Sequence record: MG383452
From: Escherichia phage FEC14
Length of the DNA stretch: 64,000 nt
Direction: 5' to 3' (one strand)
Shown here: in pieces, positions 1 to 56,846 of the stretch
How the letters are laid out: each line of letters begins with the position of its first letter
How positions within the stretch are numbered: the first letter of the stretch is position 1
Made by a program: the position numbers and the translations under genes
The notes under the pieces: generated by a model
The model's database searches: none
The model's input: only the letters and a program-made list of their open reading frames with translations
What the model was told of the DNA's origin: nothing

Positions 1-2742
1 ATGAAAATGCGCAAGTCCGAGCATTTCGTGCGCTCTTCTTCTACCATCGTCGGACAGACATTCAATGTCAAGATGACGGATAAATTATTTGAAACATTAT
101 TTTCAAGTCTCTACAAATATAAAGAGGCGGCGTCTTTGCGTGAGACGTTGTGTAATGGTATAGACTCACATAATATGCGTGATCGCCAACAACGCTGGAT
201 GCCATCGCATTATGCTCCTCTCACTCCTATGCCTCAACGATACAGCAAACATCTTGCCCCCAAGGGAACTCCTGTTGTTGTACATTTACCGGATGTTATG
301 GAACCCTGGCTGGAAATTAAAGATTATGGGGTTGGTCTTCCATTAGAAATGATCATCGGCGAGCCTATTACAGCGCGTGAAGATGAAGTGCTGGTTGAAG
401 GTAATATCGTCGTGAAGGAAGACGAAATCCCTGATAGCACTGCTGTTATTGGTACACCTGGTTATTATAATGGGGTACTGGTATTCCGCGCTGAGGATGG
501 CGAGATCATTCGTGGTCCTGGTTTGTATACAACACTCTTCCATAGTACAAAAGAGGACGACGACGGGCAAATAGGGGCGTTTGGGCTAGGTTCTAAATCC
601 CCATTTGCGGTATCTGATTCATTTACAGTAGAAAGTCGCTATGAAGGGAAACTGTATCGCTTCCTGATGTATCTGAATGCGGACAGAATCCCAACTGTAG
701 ATCTCATTACCAAGGATTTAGATACCCGTGATCCTAAACCGGAAGACACTGATGAGTTCAACGGCCTGACTGTTAAAGTTCCTGTAAAGAATCAGCGTTT
801 TACCGCCTTTGAACAAGAGTTGGTCCGTTTGGGTCGAGTGATGCGACCTTCAATGCGACCGAAGGTTGAAAACGCCAGTTATTCTTTCCGTTGGTCTGAC
901 ATCAACTTCGAAAACCGTGTAGGCAACACATATATCCAACCGAAGTTAGATTCCGACAACATCCACTATGCTGTCATGGGCGGGGTTTCTTACCCGATAG
1001 ATCTCGACCAATTGGACTCTGAAATATGCACCGTGCTGGAAAAATTCCCGAGTTCCTATACCTTCTTCGAACTTGGAGAATTGAATGTTCCTCCATCACG
1101 TGAAGACTTGTCATATGACGAGTTCACCCGTGAAAGCCTGAACCGCGTGTTCAAGCATGTGGCTGACAATATTATGCAGGCGAAGATGTATGAACTTCGC
1201 CAGGCCGAATCTATGGGTCCTCTTATGTTGTATATGAAAAAGACTCAGCTGACTGATATGTTCGGTAGTGGTTTCCGTAAATTGGTCGAACGGGAATTTC
1301 CTGCAGATAACCGTTTCTACAAAGGCACGTTCCGTTATATCGGAGCGCCGGACGTCGTGCGCGATTACTCTTTGGATGCACCTTTCCGGTCTATTGGTAG
1401 TCCTTACGAAATTGAAGTACACGACAACGGTGTAGTACACGACAGCATTTATGTGAACTCTGTCGGAAATTGGTTGAAATCTAAATCAAAAATTGCTGTT
1501 ATTATTGATAACTCGAATCGTGCTCGAAACCTGAAGATACAAACAGCACGCAATAACTTCAATGTCGTTATCGTCGTCAAACCGAATGAAAATTATTTCA
1601 GTAATCGGAATCAGCTGGCGGCACATAAAGAATCATTTACCAACCATGAGGAATTGAAGTCTTATTTTGAATCATGGATCGGTGTACAAGAAACAACGCC
1701 GGACTACCTGGTCTTTGCCGATAAACTGATCGAGGTCTTTGGCGATTTATTCAATCCGGATGAAGTCTATTTCATGCATGAAATGGAATATGTTCGCCCG
1801 ACCGTTGAAAAAGATCCTGGGATGTTTAGTTTCCATTACAATTCATTTAACTTCGACCGCGTTTATGAATTAGATGGAAAAACCGTTTCAGATATTATTG
1901 ATTCGGGCAAAAAGATCGTATATATCGAAGTATCTGGCCGAGAAGGTATCCATAAAATTCATGGTAATACCTTACGACAATCCGCGGCTGGACATTTGCG
2001 TGAAGCGATGGAAAGAACGAAGTTCGGCGAGAATGGAAACGAAAACCTGTTTGATTTGCTGGGAGCACATCCAACAATCGTTCTTGCGCGTCGTAAATCT
2101 GTTCCAATGATGAAGAAATTCCCAGAAGTATTCATCCCCATTGACGCAGTGTTTGATATGTTGCTTGAGCATTATAAAGATGAATTTCAAGCACTTGAAT
2201 CCAAGAAACTTCTGACACTTCGAAAGGGCATAAACATCATGTCTCATCGCATTGATTATGGTGCCAAGCTGTTGATTGATTCCCATGGAAAAGTTACGGA
2301 TGGCTATGCCCATCATCAGCACAGGGTAAAAGCAATCATCAGTTATGCGAAACAACAAATCACTGAAGAAGAATGGAAGATTGTTCGTATGCTGGCCAAA
2401 CGAAATCCGTCTGGATCGGGGTACGGTTATTTCCGCAAGGCTGTTGAGGAATTACATTATCGTATAGAAATGCCTTTCTCAACTACGAGATTTTTCCGCG
2501 CCTGTAACCAGTTAACTCAAGTTGTTGATTTATTGAATGAAAAATTAACTGCTGAAGGATTTGATGAGATAAAGGTCACTAGCACTATATCTCAAAAGCA
2601 AAAGGCCAAAAACCGATACCGAGTTGAATGTCATCGTTTGGTGAAATTCATGATGTCAACATATCAGCCTTCGGCACACAACGCGATTGAAGATGCCACT
2701 AGATTTGTGAAGGCTATTTCAAAACGTATTCTCGGGGCATAA
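1..2742 (+). CDS. rIIA: rIIA-like protein with N-terminal GHKL (Hsp90/GyrB-type) ATPase domain
   Basis: 913-aa ORF. Bergerat-fold motifs visible: N-box 'RETLCNGIDSH', G1 'KDYGVGLP', G2 'IGAFGLGSKSPF'. Followed by a second large ORF and located upstream of the topo II genes, as rIIA/rIIB are in T4. ORF starts at window base 1, so the true 5' end may lie upstream. Confidence 0.5.
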   Translation: MKMRKSEHFVRSSSTIVGQTFNVKMTDKLFETLFSSLYKYKEAASLRETLCNGIDSHNMRDRQQRWMPSHYAPLTPMPQRYSKHLAPKGTPVVVHLPDVMEPWLEIKDYGVGLPLEMIIGEPITAREDEVLVEGNIVVKEDEIPDSTAVIGTPGYYNGVLVFRAEDGEIIRGPGLYTTLFHSTKEDDDGQIGAFGLGSKSPFAVSDSFTVESRYEGKLYRFLMYLNADRIPTVDLITKDLDTRDPKPEDTDEFNGLTVKVPVKNQRFTAFEQELVRLGRVMRPSMRPKVENASYSFRWSDINFENRVGNTYIQPKLDSDNIHYAVMGGVSYPIDLDQLDSEICTVLEKFPSSYTFFELGELNVPPSREDLSYDEFTRESLNRVFKHVADNIMQAKMYELRQAESMGPLMLYMKKTQLTDMFGSGFRKLVEREFPADNRFYKGTFRYIGAPDVVRDYSLDAPFRSIGSPYEIEVHDNGVVHDSIYVNSVGNWLKSKSKIAVIIDNSNRARNLKIQTARNNFNVVIVVKPNENYFSNRNQLAAHKESFTNHEELKSYFESWIGVQETTPDYLVFADKLIEVFGDLFNPDEVYFMHEMEYVRPTVEKDPGMFSFHYNSFNFDRVYELDGKTVSDIIDSGKKIVYIEVSGREGIHKIHGNTLRQSAAGHLREAMERTKFGENGNENLFDLLGAHPTIVLARRKSVPMMKKFPEVFIPIDAVFDMLLEHYKDEFQALESKKLLTLRKGINIMSHRIDYGAKLLIDSHGKVTDGYAHHQHRVKAIISYAKQQITEEEWKIVRMLAKRNPSGSGYGYFRKAVEELHYRIEMPFSTTRFFRACNQLTQVVDLLNEKLTAEGFDEIKVTSTISQKQKAKNRYRVECHRLVKFMMSTYQPSAHNAIEDATRFVKAISKRILGA

Positions 2743-21492: not shown

Positions 21493-22050
21493 ATGAAATA
21501 TTTTGAGAAATTTCCACTCGTATGGCATCAACTAATTGGTGTCAAAGAGGATGACCAAGTCCTGTTGCAGAACTTAACACGACGGGTTATGGTTGTTAAG
21601 AAAATTAGGGACATAGAAGGGCTTCTCCTGCCGTATACTGTTTTTGATGGGGAAACCCCAAGGTCTTTTACCGAACGCGTCTACGGTTCCTTCGAGCTGT
21701 TTTGGATCCCATGTCTTATCAATGGTATCATGGACATCGCAGAGGACTGGCCGAAACCGGAGCGCCGTATCATTGAAGAACTGACTGCTCGATACGGCCT
21801 TGACGGAATGTGGGATGTGAAATACTATGTTGACGAATTCGGTCATGAAACAGATCCTAGAGCAATACGTTTAGCATATGGCCTTGGTTCTATGGATGAT
21901 TCCACGATTATCGCCAACTATGGTCTGACAGGTATTACATATCATGATGATGCTATAAACAAAAACGAAGCCAAACGGAATATTCAGGTTCTAGACCCAG
22001 ATTATGTTTCTTCCTTTGTTAATCAGCTGGAACAGGAGCTGACCAAATGA
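21493..22050 (+). CDS. putative baseplate hub module protein
   Basis: 185-aa ORF, translationally coupled to the next gene. Confidence 0.3.
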   Translation: MKYFEKFPLVWHQLIGVKEDDQVLLQNLTRRVMVVKKIRDIEGLLLPYTVFDGETPRSFTERVYGSFELFWIPCLINGIMDIAEDWPKPERRIIEELTARYGLDGMWDVKYYVDEFGHETDPRAIRLAYGLGSMDDSTIIANYGLTGITYHDDAINKNEAKRNIQVLDPDYVSSFVNQLEQELTK

Positions 22051-23435
22051 TCGAAAATAAAGAATCCCAGGACGGAATTTTAACTCCGTCCACAACATTT
22101 GATTTGAAATATATGGCGATATTACCGCACACACCTGAAGGCGGTACTCCCAAGCCTTATGACCTTTCATCGTTGTTTCAAGAATTCAACGTATATCAGG
22201 ATCTTGGTCTGGAAGGGAATGCTTCACCGTCGCTGACAGCTAATATTCTGATCAAAGAAGGCTGGGATATATTGGATACAATGCCAATCCTCGGAGGTGA
22301 GGAAGTAGTGGTATCGTTCAAATCACCTGCGGCTTCCGACTACACTACGCTTTCATTGCGAGTCAGTCGGGTGGGGAGAGTTGCTGACGAATCGAACTCT
22401 TCTTCGAAAAAGGCATTCTGGTTGCACTTGGTGACAACAGACGCGTATCGAGATAGCATGTTGCGTAAATCTGTTGGATTAAGCGGTTCTTATTCTGAGA
22501 TGGCAGCTAAAATCTTTGAGCAACTGAATTCACGCACCAAATTTGAAGACATAGATCCTTCATATGGGATACAAGAAAGGTTCGCTACCCCTCTTTGGCC
22601 TGTACTCCGCTCCATAGATTATATGGCCAGCCGTGCATATGACGAATTATTCATGCCATTCGTTTTCTATGAAGACTTTACGGGTTATCACTTCAAAAGC
22701 ATGACGACGTTGTTCAACCAGGGCAACCAGTCTATGACTGCTGAAGAGAAGCAAGAGGCTTCTATTGAAAAGAAATTCTTCCGAGACCCTCAAGACGCGC
22801 CGTTGATGCAGGATAACAATTTCAACTCAGAACGTTTCATGCGGACTATCATCAAGGCTGAAAAGAAACTGGCGCGTGATCAGTACATGGCGAACTATCG
22901 GGATATATTGGCTGTAAACGAACGTGTCTATGATTTCAGTACAAAATCCACTACAGCAACGCAACGCATTTATTCGGAATGGTTTGATAGCACGGCTCAC
23001 CTTGATCCGTTCCCTTTGTTCTCTGATCAATTCGACCGCGAGAACGTTAGGTACATTGAAGCGCAACCGGATGGTGCCGAACAAATAGATTACGCACGAC
23101 GCGTTATAGAATTCAGCCTCGCGTCAACGGTTATGCGTTTACTGGTCGTGGGGGATAACCGTCTGAATGTTGGGCAGGTTTATTATATTGAAGATTTGTC
23201 GAACCGCCCGAAATCTAATGAAAACATTGCCGAGTTAAGTAAGTTATCAACAGGCCATTATATCGTCACAAAGATACGCCACAAGATTTCACGCCTGACA
23301 AATGATTATCAATGCGTCGCCGAGATTGCCAAAGATAGTATGATCCAGAAGGTCTTACCGCCTCAGACTGGTCAAACTGTGGCTTCTACACCAACTCCGA
23401 CGCCAATAGAGAAAGGACAAGCCCAGAAGGTCTGA
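22047..23435 (+). CDS. putative baseplate hub module protein
   Basis: 462-aa ORF within the same operon-like block. Confidence 0.3.
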   Translation: MIENKESQDGILTPSTTFDLKYMAILPHTPEGGTPKPYDLSSLFQEFNVYQDLGLEGNASPSLTANILIKEGWDILDTMPILGGEEVVVSFKSPAASDYTTLSLRVSRVGRVADESNSSSKKAFWLHLVTTDAYRDSMLRKSVGLSGSYSEMAAKIFEQLNSRTKFEDIDPSYGIQERFATPLWPVLRSIDYMASRAYDELFMPFVFYEDFTGYHFKSMTTLFNQGNQSMTAEEKQEASIEKKFFRDPQDAPLMQDNNFNSERFMRTIIKAEKKLARDQYMANYRDILAVNERVYDFSTKSTTATQRIYSEWFDSTAHLDPFPLFSDQFDRENVRYIEAQPDGAEQIDYARRVIEFSLASTVMRLLVVGDNRLNVGQVYYIEDLSNRPKSNENIAELSKLSTGHYIVTKIRHKISRLTNDYQCVAEIAKDSMIQKVLPPQTGQTVASTPTPTPIEKGQAQKV

Positions 23436-41906: not shown

Positions 41907-41914
41907 TATAAATA
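41907..41914 (+). promoter_or_regulatory. T4-type late promoter box TATAAATA
   Basis: Exact 'tataaata' about 35 nt upstream of the 41949 start. Confidence 0.45.
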
Positions 41915-46703: not shown

Positions 46704-46711
46704 TATAAATA
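46704..46711 (+). promoter_or_regulatory. T4-type late promoter box TATAAATA
   Basis: Exact 'tataaata' about 30 nt upstream of ATG 46740. Confidence 0.45.
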
Positions 46712-46739: not shown

Positions 46740-47546
46740 ATGAATTTACCATCATTGCCCAAAACTGAGAGAACACATAAAAGTGATTTCTGGCCGACTG
46801 TGATCAAATACCGCGCCTTTACAGCAGGGCAACAGACCATGTTACTTCAGGTTGCTGATCCGAACACTCCTATGAGTGAGCGCGTGGCAACATTGGAGCA
46901 ACTATTTGACAGTTGTGTTGATGCTGGCGTTCCCTTTAGTAAACTGCCAATCGGTGTTACTGAAGAAGTATTTTTAAAGATGCGCTGTATATCTATCGGC
47001 GAGGTCATGAAGATACGTTACAAATGTAATAACAAAGTTCAAGCCGAAACCAATGAAGGTGGTGAAGAACCAGTTTCTGGCCTTAAAGATTGTGGTCAAG
47101 AGCTTGTGTTACCGATCCCGCTCAATCAAGTAAAATGCGTGTCCCCAGAAGGCTTCAGGGAGACGTTTGATCTACCAGGTGGTTATCATATAAAGATGCG
47201 CCAGCCGTCCTTCTCGGATGCCTCAGTGCTTAATGAAGCATCCTCTGTTGAACAAATGATTGCCACCTTTATCGATTGTCTGTATGACGACGATGGTCAG
47301 GTTTGGAAGGTGGAAAATCCGGCTGAACCTGGTATCGATCCAGAAGTTGCTAAAGAACGCCAACGCATTAAGGATGAATTTGTCAAATGGGTTGGGGACA
47401 ATATTGAATCCGAGATTGTTCAGGACATTTCGAATGATTTCTTTAAAAAGATTCCGCGTATTCGTTACGCGACAAAAATTAAATGCCCTTCGTGTGGGAA
47501 AGAACACGAAGTCAAATTTAACAGTGTCACTGAGATTTTCATTTAA
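46740..47546 (+). CDS. late protein with C-terminal zinc ribbon (possible baseplate assembly protein)
   Basis: 268 aa; C-terminal 'KCPSCGKEHE'; late promoter box upstream; 'GGAGATACATT' before ATG. Confidence 0.5.
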   Translation: MNLPSLPKTERTHKSDFWPTVIKYRAFTAGQQTMLLQVADPNTPMSERVATLEQLFDSCVDAGVPFSKLPIGVTEEVFLKMRCISIGEVMKIRYKCNNKVQAETNEGGEEPVSGLKDCGQELVLPIPLNQVKCVSPEGFRETFDLPGGYHIKMRQPSFSDASVLNEASSVEQMIATFIDCLYDDDGQVWKVENPAEPGIDPEVAKERQRIKDEFVKWVGDNIESEIVQDISNDFFKKIPRIRYATKIKCPSCGKEHEVKFNSVTEIFI

Positions 47547-47694: not shown

Positions 47695-47722
47695 CAACCC
47701 CACGTAATGTGGGGTTTTCTTT
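47695..47722 (+). terminator. rho-independent terminator
   Basis: 'aaccccacgtaatgtggggtt' followed by 'ttctttg'. Confidence 0.6.
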
Positions 47723-48064
47723 GCTTACCTGTATTACCGTTTAAGAAAGGATTGTTTAACCCGAAATTGCTATAACACCATTGTTCCTGATATGAATGTT
47801 GTGTAAATCTGTTTTGAATTTGTTTTGAAACAAAAATAATGCTTTTCTACGCATGTTCTGAGGTGTACAGTATTTTCCTCGCCTTTATGCCTCCATGGCA
47901 TTGGAATGGGACTGCCTGTCAAGGCGGTGTTACGAGCTTCAGCGAGTAGGAACGAAAAGAATAAAGGTTGAACGGAAGCAGAGCTTCCTATAATATATTA
48001 TTCGACAGATTTCAAATCCCCGCCATAAATATCACATGATTCTAATTGACTAATGGGTTTCAAT

Positions 48065-49678
48065 ATGTTAGACAACTTGCGTTGGTTTTACGGGCGCGTT
48101 GAAGACGTGAATGATCCCGATCAAAACGGGCGCGTCGCAGTACGCATCTATGGGGTACACACGGAGGATACCACTCTCCTGCCTACCGAATTATTGCCTT
48201 GGGGTAAAATGCTTATGCCAGCATCTAACGCCTCCTCGGCAGGTTTAGGCTGGTCTCCGACGGGTATCACTGTCGGCTCTGACGTTATGGGGTTTGCTTT
48301 GGATGAAGCATATCAGAACATCCGTATTGCATGGGTATGGCCAGCAGCAACACCAACAGATGGGTCAGATACAAACCCATTGGCGCTGGGTCAGGTCGTT
48401 CAATCTATAGAAAGGCAGAAGTATAATGCCGTCGAGAATGTTCCTGTTAAGATTGAGGATGAACCACAACCGGATCCACAACCACCAGTAGACGGATATG
48501 ATCCTGAGAAGTGGATGACCGTGGCTCGTGGGGAATTGGGTGTCAAAGAATATTCTGGTAAGTTCAATAACAACCCAAGGATATTGGAATATCATAAGAC
48601 AACTTCCCTGGGGGCTTCAGAAGATGAAGTTAGTTGGTGCGCGTCGTTTGTCGGATGGGTTCTGATACAGGCCGGATATACATCAACACGTTCTGCTTTG
48701 GCTCGTTCATATTTACAATGGGGATCTCCTCTGTCAGAACCACGTTACGGCGCTGTTGTTGTATTCCGGCGTGGGAACAACCCAACATTTGGTCACGTCG
48801 CATTCGTTCAGAAATTTGACGCCAACTACGTCTGGTGTATCGGGGGAAACCAATCCGATTCTGTGAAGGTGAGTCGCTTCAGCCGCTCATCTGTGTTGGG
48901 TTATCGTTGGCCTGGTCCTGCTACGACAGCATCGGCGGCTCCTGCGCAACAAAATGGTAAATGGTCTGAGCCAATCCCTGATCGTACACCAAAAGTTCAG
49001 GAAACTCCGCCTCCTTCTGGCCGTGTTCAGGATATTGACAACACAGGAGAGGTATCGGTTCCTTCGGCTGGAGGGTCTCGTTATCCATACAACAATGTTA
49101 TGGCTTCTCGAGCTGGGCATATTATGGAGGTCGATGACACTCCAGGCGGGGAACGTTTGCATTGGATGCACTCTTCTGGGTCTTACAAGCAAATGCTTCC
49201 TGACGGTGATGTTGTTAATAAATCAGTCAAAGATCATTATGACCTGACGATGTTCGACAAACGTTATTATGTGGGGGGTGATCATAACCTGACAATTGGT
49301 GGGACTGAAGTACAGCGCAAGAAAGGAGAAGTTTACCACTTACACTCTTCTAACTATTCCAATGTGGTCGCTGGAACAGCGTTGATGAAATTTTCCCAAT
49401 TGGCTGAGATACAGGCACAGAACGTGTTGCGTCTCATCTGTGAAATGTTGGAAGTTTCCAATACTTTGAAAGTGCCTAAAATACTGGCTAGTGAAATAGT
49501 TTGTGATAAGTTGTCGGTGGCGCAGACTATTGAAGGCAACATCAAATATGCTGAAGGCGCTGGTCGCGCCGCCTCACGTGCGGGGGCAACTCCTGTAACA
49601 ACTACAGGCCCAGGTCCAATTGATATAAAACCGGAGTTAGAGGATAACGGTGGCAATTTTGGTGGTAAAGGCGCATGA
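48065..49678 (+). CDS. baseplate hub/central spike protein (gp5-like) with CHAP peptidoglycan hydrolase domain
   Basis: N-terminus 'MLDNLRWFYGRVEDVNDPDQNGRVAVRIYGVHTED' parallels the T4 gp5 OB domain; CHAP-like 'SWCASFVGWVL...GHVAFV'. Confidence 0.65.
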   Translation: MLDNLRWFYGRVEDVNDPDQNGRVAVRIYGVHTEDTTLLPTELLPWGKMLMPASNASSAGLGWSPTGITVGSDVMGFALDEAYQNIRIAWVWPAATPTDGSDTNPLALGQVVQSIERQKYNAVENVPVKIEDEPQPDPQPPVDGYDPEKWMTVARGELGVKEYSGKFNNNPRILEYHKTTSLGASEDEVSWCASFVGWVLIQAGYTSTRSALARSYLQWGSPLSEPRYGAVVVFRRGNNPTFGHVAFVQKFDANYVWCIGGNQSDSVKVSRFSRSSVLGYRWPGPATTASAAPAQQNGKWSEPIPDRTPKVQETPPPSGRVQDIDNTGEVSVPSAGGSRYPYNNVMASRAGHIMEVDDTPGGERLHWMHSSGSYKQMLPDGDVVNKSVKDHYDLTMFDKRYYVGGDHNLTIGGTEVQRKKGEVYHLHSSNYSNVVAGTALMKFSQLAEIQAQNVLRLICEMLEVSNTLKVPKILASEIVCDKLSVAQTIEGNIKYAEGAGRAASRAGATPVTTTGPGPIDIKPELEDNGGNFGGKGA

Positions 49679-49742
49679 TTACGCTGGTGAGGGCAGATAA
49701 TGCCCTCTCGTGCTGGAGAGGCAATATCCAAAGGGGTTTAAC

Positions 49743-50123
49743 ATGAAAGAGTACAAGGACATTGACCTGAAGTTTGGCATGCATCCGGTCACCAAAGATG
49801 TCACTAAGAAAACAGGCATTTATGCTGTACTACAATCTGTGCGTAATATAGTGATGTCGACGGTAGGTGATTGGCCGACGTATCCGAGTATTGGGGCGGG
49901 GTTGTATACCATGCTGGGAGAAAACACAAATCCCACGATACAGGTCGACGTGAAGAACAAAGTTGAAGATGCCATTGCTCTTTTTGAGCCAAGAGCTGAA
50001 TTGCAATCTGTTGATGTATCATTGTCGGACGATTATCATTCTCTGGGCGTAACCATCACGTTCTATGTGGTCAACAACCCAGAGCCGATAACAGACACCA
50101 TATGGTTGAAACGGACAAATTGA
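49743..50123 (+). CDS. baseplate wedge protein (gp25 / GPW family)
   Basis: 'aagggg' SD; pattern 'LFEPRAELQSVDV...VTITFYVVNNPE' parallels T4 gp25 'NYEPRIDKLAVNV...IVEIRFSVIDNPD'. Confidence 0.7.
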   Translation: MKEYKDIDLKFGMHPVTKDVTKKTGIYAVLQSVRNIVMSTVGDWPTYPSIGAGLYTMLGENTNPTIQVDVKNKVEDAIALFEPRAELQSVDVSLSDDYHSLGVTITFYVVNNPEPITDTIWLKRTN

Positions 50124-55982: not shown

Positions 55983-56777
55983 TTAGCAGAAACTCTTGTA
56001 TGCTGCCGCCAGTTTAGTATCATACTGGTTTTTCGCATATGCCGGACCATTGTACCGACGAGCAAACTCGGCCCAATTCTTGTTCTTCAGGGCTTTCCAC
56101 ATATTGGCATCAGCCTTGATGAACTTGACAAATGCCAGAAGATGAGCGCGTTCACCAGTCAGGAAATCAGTGAACATCTCTTTGGCATTTGAATAGCCAC
56201 AGATTTGGCAGTTGAACCCCATGATCTGGAATAGGCCGTAGGAAGCACTCTCGTAAGCGCAGTCCTCGTCAAGGGCGATTGCACCCTGAAGGCGTTCCAA
56301 CTCCGCGTCTCCGCCGATATACCCGCCAGAATTGGGGTTAACCAATGTTGGGTAGAGTTGGTACAGAGCATTGGCTCTTGCTTGCCCGAATTTGGCCGTC
56401 ACCTTTTTGTACATGATGTGGCGCTCAAACAGAGTTTTGATCTTGCCAGTTTTGGTAAAACCCGTGCCACGGGATTCTACCTGGTTCACCGCTTTCATAC
56501 TGGCCAGCTCAACACCAAGTTCACGTGCTGCGTCAACCAAGTCCGCTTCGGTCAGATGTTCCTGGTGAGCGTCTCCAGCGTTGCGGATAGCATAGAAGGT
56601 CTTTGGCCCAGCAATACCATCAATAACCAATCCAGCACCTGCCTGAACGGATTTGACGGCATTCTCTGTTGCCTTACCAAATATGCCATCGGCTGTAAGA
56701 GAGAAACCGATTTTGTTGAGGCTTTGTTGAAGTGCTTTGACTTCAGAACCTCGGTTGCCAAGTTTTAGAATGGCCAT
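55983..56777 (-). CDS. endolysin: peptidoglycan-binding domain plus N-acetylmuramidase-like catalytic domain
   Basis: N-terminal PG-binding repeat 'LKLGNRGSEVKALQQSLNKIGF...DGIFGKATENAVKSVQ'; C-terminal 'ASYGLFQIMGFN' muramidase-like motif. Confidence 0.65.
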   Translation of the reverse strand: MAILKLGNRGSEVKALQQSLNKIGFSLTADGIFGKATENAVKSVQAGAGLVIDGIAGPKTFYAIRNAGDAHQEHLTEADLVDAARELGVELASMKAVNQVESRGTGFTKTGKIKTLFERHIMYKKVTAKFGQARANALYQLYPTLVNPNSGGYIGGDAELERLQGAIALDEDCAYESASYGLFQIMGFNCQICGYSNAKEMFTDFLTGERAHLLAFVKFIKADANMWKALKNKNWAEFARRYNGPAYAKNQYDTKLAAAYKSFC

Positions 56778-56846
56778 AAGAAAATACCTCCGCAATGTAT
56801 GCGAAGGTATTTAAAGTGAAAGTCGAACTTGAGGATTTAGTGTCGA

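Follow-up and report, generated by a model that had tools for sequence, protein, structure and literature searches.

Which peptidoglycan bond is cut when Escherichia phage FEC14 enters its host is the question raised by one of its tail genes, which was described in an earlier note, made from the sequence alone, as a gp5-like baseplate spike with a CHAP domain. The gene lies in a window of 64,000 nucleotides from sequence record MG383452, the whole stretch of DNA that was analysed. The source phage is a Kuttervirus (family Ackermannviridae) and belongs to the Salmonella/E. coli phages of the ViI/CBA120 type. Kutterviruses such as CBA120, ViI, Det7 and SFP10 are in wide use, both in biocontrol and as models for the study of tailspikes.

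The gene itself is already known: it is annotated, conserved and ordinary for Ackermannviridae. In Salmonella phage SFP10 its counterpart has a sequence 100% identical to the encoded protein, and conserved versions are known from ~270 phage genomes. Among the public names of these proteins are "tail lysozyme", "cell wall-associated hydrolase", "TIGR02594 family protein" and "CHAP domain-containing protein", the third being the NCBI name for the identical proteins. The name "tail lysozyme" is a misnomer; it has also passed to endolysins of ~160 aa from the lysis cassettes of unrelated phages, and these endolysins have only the peptidase module in common with the spike. Homologues were found in virions by mass spectrometry, namely ORF61 of LIMEstone1 (PMC3296691) and gp13 of Sajous1 (PMC10892097). 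A literature search found no enzymatic assay, structure or genetics for the Ackermannviridae spike enzyme, and no explicit description of it either. Here we present the domain architecture, the predicted catalytic site and the genomic surroundings of the protein, which is likely to be the central cell-puncturing spike of the Kuttervirus contractile tail, a counterpart of T4 gp5 with a periplasm-acting peptidoglycan peptidase or amidase.

Gene and domain architecture

The positions of the gene, its domains and the related genes in the window are summarized in Table 1. The open reading frame, with the stop codon included in its coordinates, encodes 541 aa. The earlier note had chosen the internal Met5 of this frame as the start; the resulting 537-aa protein is also the RefSeq choice for close relatives and starts where most homologues do. 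A match to PHROG 430 was obtained with E=5.5e-158.

Table 1. Spike gene of phage FEC14, its domains and predicted catalytic residues, and related features of the window
Feature	Position	Strand	Basis or remark
Central spike protein CDS	48053..49678	+	541 aa from ATG 48053 / 537 aa from ATG 48065
gp5-type OB-fold domain, N-terminal, residues ~5-100	48065..48352	+	Gp5_OB, 42% identity to T4-like gp5, PDB T4 gp5 chains
Linker 1, residues 101-146, low model confidence, Pro/Ser/Thr/Ala/Gly/Gln-rich	48353..48490	+	
CHAP/TIGR02594 cysteine peptidase module, residues 147-292, at the place of the T4 lysozyme domain	48491..48928	+	Profiles, model, LysPM2 identity
Cys196 codon, predicted nucleophile, motif SWC196ASFV	48638-48640	+	Invariant; aligns with LysPM2 C47
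His248 codon, predicted general base, motif GH248VAFV	48794-48796	+	Invariant; aligns with LysPM2 H96
Gly-Gly-Asn-Gln motif, residues 264-267; Asn266 as predicted third triad member	48842..48853	+	Invariant; Asn266 aligns with LysPM2 N115
Linker 2, residues 293-338, Pro/Ser/Thr/Ala-rich, at the place of the T4 gp5*/gp5C maturation cleavage	48929..49066	+	
Proximal needle, residues 339-436; homology to the first part of the triple beta-helix of T4 gp5C	49067..49360	+	
Distal C-terminal region, residues 437-541, Gly/Pro/Thr-rich tail at the end	49361..49675	+	No known repeats or family
T4-type late-promoter-like box CATAAATA, one mismatch from TATAAATA	48024..48031	+	21 nt ahead of ATG 48053, 33 nt ahead of ATG 48065
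Baseplate hub gene (T4 gp26-type)	46740..47546	+	T4_baseplate PF12322 E=1e-51; PHROG 150 'baseplate hub'
Baseplate wedge gene (gp25-type)	49710..50123	+	GPW_gp25 E=1.2e-8; PHROG 261 and 43
Probable gp27-type hub partner of the spike	22047..23435	+	PHROG 350 'tail protein', E=2e-102
Separate endolysin, PG_binding_1 + Muramidase	55983-56795	-	Domain content

The alignment of the N-terminal OB fold with T4 gp5, claimed in the earlier note, is borne out by Pfam, where Gp5_OB (PF06714) matches residues 39-98 with E=6.2e-10 and 39.9 bits (gathering score 25), and by BLASTP, which aligns residues 3-81 with residues 6-89 of a T4-like gp5 at 42% identity over 84 aa and E=4e-15. T4 gp5 chains in the PDB (1K28, 1PDL and 5IV5) were matched too. 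The strands of this domain (10-96) are modelled with a pLDDT of ~76-82 in the full-length AlphaFold model. The domain is presumed to dock the spike on the hub.

The enzyme module had been read as a CHAP peptidase or amidase rather than a T4-type lysozyme, and the profile searches agree: CHAP (PF05257) matches residues 191-266 with E=3.3e-10 and 40.7 bits (gathering score 26), whereas no lysozyme family was matched in the spike protein at E<=0.1 in Pfam. A more specific profile, TIGR02594 of NCBIfam, matches residues 154-286 with E=8.5e-39 and 132.9 bits, the curated cut-off being 70.55, and the alignment spans positions 2-132 of the 132 in the profile. The module is set off by two linkers with a P/S/T/A/G/Q fraction of 0.50 (residues 97-146) and 0.61 (linker 2), the latter modelled with a pLDDT of ~30. 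The order of OB domain, enzyme and needle is that of T4 gp5, from which the FEC14 protein differs in having a CHAP/TIGR02594 cysteine peptidase where T4 has a T4-type lysozyme.

Catalytic module

The motifs quoted from the sequence in the earlier note, 'SWCASFV...GHVAFV', are real, and the codons of their cysteine and histidine were verified, as were those of the GGNQ motif. The domain model (pLDDT 91.5) has a papain-like NlpC/P60–CHAP fold that keeps the Cys/His pair, with Cys196 as residue 1 of helix 50-60 and His248 at the start of strand 101-109 (domain numbering), an arrangement known from papain-like peptidases. Neither observation that the earlier note had named as refuting its reading, a missing CHAP profile match or a model lacking the Cys/His pair, was made. 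Foldseek returned probabilities of 1.00 for MepS, LytE, Acd24020 and LysK, and also matched viral CHAP/TIGR02594 proteins. Every CHAP-bearing homologue in the alignment has Cys196, His248 and Asn266. Triad and GGNQ motif alike stay unchanged in Ackermannviridae homologues down to 60% overall identity as well as in remoter OB-CHAP proteins, which argues for selection on catalysis. We reject a chance origin of the Cys/His motifs, since homologues with as little as 34-37% identity keep them without change and the profile E values are 1e-10 to 1e-39. A catalytic cysteine that is exposed on the virion and acts in the oxidising periplasm would need protection.

The module shares a papain-like fold and Cys/His motifs in register with the NlpC/P60 DL-endopeptidases MepS, LytE, CwlO and Acd24020 and with the classical CHAP enzymes LysK (CHAPK) and LysGH15; Cys196 is in register with the catalytic cysteine motif of the NlpC/P60 proteins 4hpe and CwlO. 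It differs from these enzymes in sequence, with 10-22% identity, and the TM scores of the Foldseek matches to MepS, LytE, Acd24020, LysK and LysGH15 are ~0.55-0.6. A search of PDB sequences with a profile of the module gave only marginal NlpC/P60 and Tae4 (4hz9) matches and no solved structure of the TIGR02594 subfamily. Given this low identity and the lack of a solved TIGR02594 structure, the bond specificity of NlpC/P60 or CHAP enzymes is not transferable to the module. The module is more precisely assigned to the TIGR02594 subfamily, and its predicted fold resembles that of NlpC/P60 DL-endopeptidases no less than that of classical CHAP domains. It can soundly be predicted from the sequence to be a cysteine peptidase or amidase and not a glycosidase, so that the bond cut would differ from that cut by T4.

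Close relatives of the module are stand-alone TIGR02594/CHAP endolysins from phages that infect Gram-negative bacteria (LysPM2, PaMx11 gp35, phiARM81ld p58 and ICP1 gp207), which are 34-46% identical to it and share the Cys/His/Asn triad and GGNQ. These soluble proteins of ~160-240 aa are products of lysis cassettes and work from inside the cell when infection ends; the FEC14 module belongs to a spike of the virion, and its action would come from outside, during entry. LysPM2 (158 aa) of Proteus phage PM-CJR is 38% identical to the module (E=2e-29), and its C47, H96 and N115 align with Cys196, His248 and Asn266. It was found to be lytic on Proteus by experiment, its triad C47/H96/N115 being a prediction (PMC13461873). 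The activity of LysPM2 needs a reductant or Ca2+.

From the inactive papain-like domains known from other protein families it might be supposed that the module lacks activity and only binds peptidoglycan or plays a structural part in the spike. That the triad is common to this active endolysin, that all three residues are kept and invariant in the spike and that the score is well above the TIGR02594 cut-off make this very improbable.

A substrate other than peptidoglycan was also considered, such as the Lpp-peptidoglycan link, another envelope protein or the spike's own linker, cleaved in a maturation like that of gp5*/gp5C. Linker 2 stands where T4 gp5 is cleaved in maturation and is rich in Pro, Ser, Thr and Ala, and in one uncultured relative the gene is split exactly at its boundary. 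T4 gp5, however, matures without any cysteine peptidase. Moreover, the stand-alone homologues PaMx11 gp35, phiARM81ld p58 and PM-CJR LysPM2 hold the endolysin position in holin-endolysin-spanin cassettes and one of these homologues lyses permeabilised cells, which points to peptidoglycan as the substrate of the family. We therefore give little credence to self-cleavage or another envelope substrate, and peptidoglycan is retained as the predicted target.

Needle and C-terminal region

Behind linker 2 the similarity to gp5 resumes. Residues 340-435 match residues 387-480 of T4-like gp5 in BLASTP at 38% identity (E=2e-18), and a PDB search aligned residues 339-436 with gp5 residues 383-477 (entries 1k28, 1pdl and 5iv5), the alignments skipping the lysozyme part of gp5. 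The statement of the earlier note that the C-terminus lacks obvious beta-helix repeats holds for the distal part; the first ~100 residues of the needle, however, are conserved and clearly homologous to gp5C. In the distal part the FEC14 spike differs from T4 gp5: no Gp5_C repeats were matched by Pfam in the spike protein, and the hydrophobicity of residues 392-505 has no period of eight (z=-0.4, versus z=5.1 for T4 gp5 436-575). A profile of the last 106 residues gave only chance-level matches in PDB and Pfam (Top7, LysM). The distal region is conserved within Ackermannviridae.

The full-length AlphaFold model places beta-strands of the needle at 347-430 with low confidence, because an obligate trimer was modelled as a monomer. 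As the mean pLDDT of this model is only 51, we infer the trimeric needle from homology only. In a further difference from T4, no gp5.4/PAAR-type tip gene was found after the spike gene, or elsewhere in the window, below E=2 by tblastn with T4-like gp5.4, a weak test for a small and fast-evolving protein.

The needle homology to gp5C would suffice for membrane puncture, and many of the gp5_OB proteins listed as homologues have, by their Pfam domains, a different enzyme module or none that can be recognised, so that the enzyme may be seen as an exchangeable accessory. The spike could accordingly be mainly mechanical, the CHAP module being an auxiliary for heavily cross-linked or stationary-phase walls or for 'lysis from without' that is dispensable in normal entry. 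This is unlikely in view of the triad and GGNQ, which are invariant over the same range of Ackermannviridae and remoter OB-CHAP proteins as given above, and a peptidase that takes part in ordinary entry is preferred.

Genome context and expression

The spike gene sits between the gp26-like and the gp25-like baseplate genes. As with T4 gp5, the gene is thus found among baseplate hub and wedge genes, and the homologues of the FEC14 spike are virion components. The probable hub partner is encoded far upstream; in size and in its place just before a 646-aa tape-measure gene it matches ORF26 of LIMEstone1, which was described as 'baseplate hub subunit (T4 gp27)' (PMC3296691). A phmmer search of PDB with this candidate gave no match to T4 gp27. 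That the spike protein is itself the endolysin of the phage was ruled out by its OB and needle domains, its baseplate neighbours, the presence of homologues in virions and the separate muramidase endolysin.

The late-promoter-like box ahead of the spike gene may, judged only by its position, act as a promoter. The other YATAAATA boxes on the + strand likewise precede structural genes by a short distance, at 41907 (tail-tube-type) and 46704 (gp26-like hub); the number of such boxes in the window (4 found, 4.8 expected) is not above chance. Rfam gave no matches in the whole window, and the 338-nt non-coding stretch upstream of the spike gene folds no better than its shuffles (z=0.02).

Proposed mechanism and comparison with other systems

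The spike would be expressed late, apparently from its own promoter. Three copies probably assemble, with their OB domains docked on a gp27-type hub and their C-terminal parts intertwined into a needle that is gp5C-like over its first ~100 residues; the three CHAP/TIGR02594 modules would be carried on the flank, where T4 has its lysozyme. Contraction of the sheath would drive the needle through the outer membrane and bring the peptidase modules into the periplasm, where they may cut the peptide part of peptidoglycan locally by means of Cys196, His248 and Asn266. Candidate bonds are those of the stem peptide, the cross-link or the MurNAc-L-Ala amide. Such local cutting would open a hole for the tail tube, and exit of the phage would be left to a different enzyme, the muramidase endolysin. 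The current understanding of contractile-tail action is unchanged by the finding.

Two known types of peptidase delivery resemble this arrangement. In the type VI secretion system, with its Tae amidase effectors, a spike complex of the contractile-tail kind likewise carries a papain-like wall peptidase into the Gram-negative periplasm, and TIGR02594 domains were reported in VgrG-associated effectors of Stenotrophomonas (PMC13055248). Such effectors are separate cargo proteins with an immunity partner, whereas the FEC14 enzyme is built into the polypeptide of the spike itself, with no immunity gene; the sequence match of the module to Tae4 is the marginal one noted above. Tail-associated lysins of myoviruses of Gram-positive hosts, such as ORF56 of phage K, are also virion-borne CHAP-type peptidases for entry (PMC5380687), but their targets are thick Gram-positive walls, and they do not belong to the spikes of the gp5_OB and gp5C type. 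In the same review, from 2017, P5 of phi6 was the sole endopeptidase-type virion lysin then demonstrated for a phage infecting Gram-negative bacteria (PMC5380687).

Against this background we tentatively raise a bolder reading, which we think rather doubtful: that the central spike of Ackermannviridae is the first entry lysin of peptidase and not glycosidase type on a contractile-tail axis directed against Gram-negative bacteria, cutting stem peptides or cross-links instead of glycan strands, and that its last ~105 residues, which are free of repeats and match nothing, form a new tip replacing both the regular gp5C helix and the gp5.4/PAAR cap. The module, as a relative of LysPM2, is in addition a compact candidate enzyme for Gram-negative walls.

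Domain architecture of the spike protein

The spike protein, the probable counterpart of T4 gp5, matches the Pfam families Gp5_OB (residues 39-98) and CHAP (residues 191-266) above their gathering scores, and the Pfam search yielded neither a lysozyme family nor Gp5_C repeats at E<=0.1. NCBIfam TIGR02594 is matched over its entire profile at residues 154-286 (132.9 bits, cut-off 70.55). T4-type gp5 chains are the sole real matches among solved structures; the alignment covers the OB domain and, separately, residues 339-436 (gp5 383-477), with the lysozyme of gp5 left unaligned. BLASTP against a T4-like gp5 gave 42% identity in the OB region and 38% where residues 340-435 align with 387-480. 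Together these matches define the order of domains listed in the table. The observation, made from the sequence alone, of an N-terminal OB fold alignable with T4 gp5 and a CHAP module in place of a T4-type lysozyme is confirmed, and its interpretation as a gp5-like baseplate spike is supported with refinements.

One refinement concerns the C-terminus, for which the earlier note reported no obvious beta-helix repeats. This holds for the distal part, where neither periodicity nor Gp5_C is found, and fails for residues 340-435. Their homology to the beginning of gp5C is clear, and a trimeric needle spanning at least these residues can reasonably be predicted from it. The hydrophobicity of residues 392-505 shows no period-8 or period-2 signal (z=-0.4), with z=5.1 for the same test on T4 gp5 436-575. 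Neither Pfam nor the solved structures yielded a match to the profile of residues 436-541, and tblastn across the window, a weak test, detected no gp5.4-like protein. Limestonevirus-type and related Ackermannviridae spikes (e.g. Serratia phage 3M and Erwinia phage phiEa2809) carry an extra C-terminal extension of about 70 residues (alignment columns ~770-856, homologues P0014-P0022), which ends in a conserved '...LP.AS...VIILRQ.GSKPQMMLSNG.TWE' segment and is absent from the Kuttervirus spike in the window.

Features of the window, the spike protein (residues counted from the ATG at 48053) and related loci
Feature	Position	Strand	Remarks
gp27-like hub protein, probable	22047-23435		PHROG 350
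YATAAATA box	41907-41914	+	
YATAAATA box	46704-46711	+	
gp26-type hub gene	46740-47546		Pfam T4_baseplate, E=1e-51; flanks spike gene
Terminator-like hairpin	47696-47716		closes unit upstream of spike gene
CATAAATA box	48024-48031	+	YATAAATA box just upstream of spike gene
Spike CDS	48053-49678	+	ORF, 541 aa
OB	residues about 5-100		
Linker	residues 101-146		Pro/Ser/Thr/Ala-rich, very low model confidence
CHAP/TIGR02594	residues 147-292		
Linker	residues 293-338		Pro/Ser/Thr/Ala-rich, very low model confidence
gp5C-like proximal needle	residues 339-436		
Distal region	residues 437-541		no family match
gp25-type wedge gene	49710-50123		flanks spike gene, other side
ORF, 84 aa	50927-51181	-	
Endolysin	55983-56795	-	PG_binding_1 + N-acetylmuramidase (PF11860), separate gene
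PaMx11 gp35	L005:3986-4492		adjoins holin
phiARM81ld p58	L006:2492-2971		between holin and Rz/Rz1
PM-CJR gene 062 (LysPM2, QYC51792)			order holin, hypothetical, 062, i-spanin
Uncultured phage, first spike gene	within L008:1967-4997		OB + CHAP, 330 aa
Uncultured phage, second spike gene	within L008:1967-4997		547 aa; weak GH19/chitinase-like region (22.2 bits, below Pfam cut-off) + needle homology

Spike gene and its surroundings

The ORF proposed at 48065-49678 is real; its start is the second in-frame ATG (Met5) of a longer ORF that opens at 48053. The Met5 start (537 aa) is the RefSeq choice for close relatives, and most homologues in the alignment begin with the corresponding 'MLDN...'. 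All three plus-strand YATAAATA boxes in the window directly precede tail or baseplate genes, a placement consistent with T4-type late promoters. Since the motif is no more frequent in the window than chance predicts, it is position only that suggests late expression of the spike gene from its own promoter. The stretch between hairpin and spike gene (47717-48052) is unusually long, about 340 nt without a convincing ORF; Rfam gave no match to it, and its predicted folding is on a par with that of shuffled sequence (z=0.02). The annotation of one relative places a 36-aa ORF in the equivalent stretch.

Elsewhere in the window there are gp48-like and gp53-like genes and a tape measure gene. The assignment of the probable gp27-like hub protein draws on its PHROG match and on a size and gene order that agree with LIMEstone1 ORF26; its product has no direct PDB match to gp27. 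Homologues of the spike were detected by mass spectrometry in purified virions of LIMEstone1 (ORF61; PMC3296691) and Sajous1 (gp13; PMC10892097).

Catalytic module

Cys196, His248 and Gly264-Gly265-Asn266-Gln267 are invariant across 21 aligned homologues, comprising Ackermannviridae proteins of >=60% identity and more distant metagenome OB-CHAP proteins (34-37%). In a broader set of modules from other protein architectures the His and GGNQ are conserved and the Cys occurs in 18 of 19. Residues 147-292 were modelled with AlphaFold from the alignment; the model reached a mean pLDDT of 91.5 and a pTM of 0.88 and retains the predicted catalytic pair Cys196/His248. A helix begins at Cys196, the next long beta-strand near His248, and Asn266 follows the adjacent strand, a predicted placement typical of papain-like peptidases.

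A Foldseek search of the PDB returned first NlpC/P60 DL-endopeptidases (bacterial peptidase 7v6t, Acd24020, MepS, LytE) and next the CHAP domains of LysK (CHAPK), LysIME-EF1 and LysGH15, with TM values of about 0.55-0.6 and sequence identities of 10-22%. The modelled fold is nearest to DL-endopeptidases and cross-link endopeptidases, whose bond specificity is not transferable to the module at such identity. The sequence profile of the module gave marginal PDB matches alone (4hpe, CwlO, Tae4), with Cys and His motifs in register, which points to a TIGR02594 subfamily without a solved structure. Among predicted viral structures, the module matched best the Ackermannviridae spike from Serratia and phage proteins that bear the names CHAP, Peptidase C51, NlpC/P60 or TIGR02594.

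Stand-alone relatives of the module

With the module alone, tblastn matched 565 phage records; the 284 with less than 60% identity belong to phages that infect Vibrio, Pseudomonas, Rhizobium, Proteus, Caulobacter and other hosts. At the three loci examined, a small stand-alone homologue takes the place of the endolysin in the lysis cassette. Purified LysPM2 of Proteus phage PM-CJR lyses Proteus cells once the outer membrane is permeabilised; its activity is Ca2+-dependent and its predicted triad is C47/H96/N115 (PMC13461873). Over an alignment of 137 residues the spike module and LysPM2 are 38% identical (E=2e-29), and Cys196/His248/Asn266 fall exactly on the LysPM2 triad. These lysis-cassette homologues and the lytic LysPM2 independently support, by homology, an activity of the module on Gram-negative walls; that the CHAP module is a dead domain is one of the less probable readings.

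ICP1 gp207 combines PG_binding_1 and CHAP, an architecture that it shares with the characterised Vibrio endolysin Lysqdvp001 (PMC9180635). PaMx11 gp35, phiARM81ld p58 and many other matches bear a name apparently propagated from the Ackermannviridae spike, with which they have only the peptidase module in common; they are most likely endolysins. A 627-aa NCBI protein (P0024) carries tandem TIGR02594 modules (residues 234-373 and 456-593), each about 50% identical to the spike module, and has the precomputed Pfam matches PF00877, PF00959 and PF01476; it looks like a wall hydrolase with several enzymes.

Proposed mode of action

The best-supported model, which we consider probable, is a T4 gp5-like trimeric spike that delivers three peptidase modules to the periplasm. 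The OB domains would seat the trimer on the hub, the C-terminal part would serve as membrane-piercing needle, and tail contraction would carry the modules into the periplasm, where they would locally cut the peptide part of murein. The smaller remaining probability is shared by the dead domain, by a spike enzyme that is auxiliary and non-essential, and by a peptidase whose substrate is non-murein or which acts in self-processing. With its separate muramidase endolysin the phage pairs a glycosidase for exit with a predicted cysteine peptidase on the entry spike, two unrelated wall-degrading chemistries. For phages that infect Gram-negative bacteria, a 2017 review names phi6 P5 as the sole endopeptidase-type virion lysin demonstrated (PMC5380687). 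In the literature searched, no biochemical or structural study of an Ackermannviridae spike enzyme was found.

Occurrence and variety

The 3.5 kb around the spike gene share 98-99% identity with many genomes of Kuttervirus (Ackermannviridae) and match 273 phage records, mostly Salmonella, Klebsiella, Escherichia and Dickeya; the spike protein is 100% identical to an ORF of Salmonella phage SFP10. Because the OB-CHAP-needle architecture is conserved throughout the Ackermannviridae and can be read from domain annotations in public databases, it is not new as far as sequence and annotation go, and the gene is an ordinary, already deposited one for its phage family. The remaining value lies in correcting the name 'lysozyme' and in the bond specificity.

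Exchange of the enzymatic module is common among gp5_OB proteins, whose precomputed Pfam domains in the homologue list include PF13539, PF08291, PF00959 and PF18013, families of M15-type peptidases and lysozymes. In an uncultured relative the spike protein is encoded by two genes, divided at the CHAP-needle boundary and followed by a gp25-like gene; the needle homology of the second product amounts to 29% identity (E=1e-23). The two genes would encode a split spike that may carry two enzymes, and the division coincides with the T4 gp5*/gp5C cleavage position.

The 158 kb record MN871475.1, 'Pseudomonas phage Pa-sanjiao' (P. aeruginosa PAO1 host), contains a module 100% identical to that of Kuttervirus; the record has either a doubtful host label or an unexpected host range. 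Salmonella phage KE27 carries an 830-bp homing endonuclease gene (L003:24306-25136) between small unknown ORFs 3' of gp25 and glutaredoxin/nrdB, at the place where the window has the 84-aa ORF alone, which looks like a presence/absence polymorphism of a mobile element.
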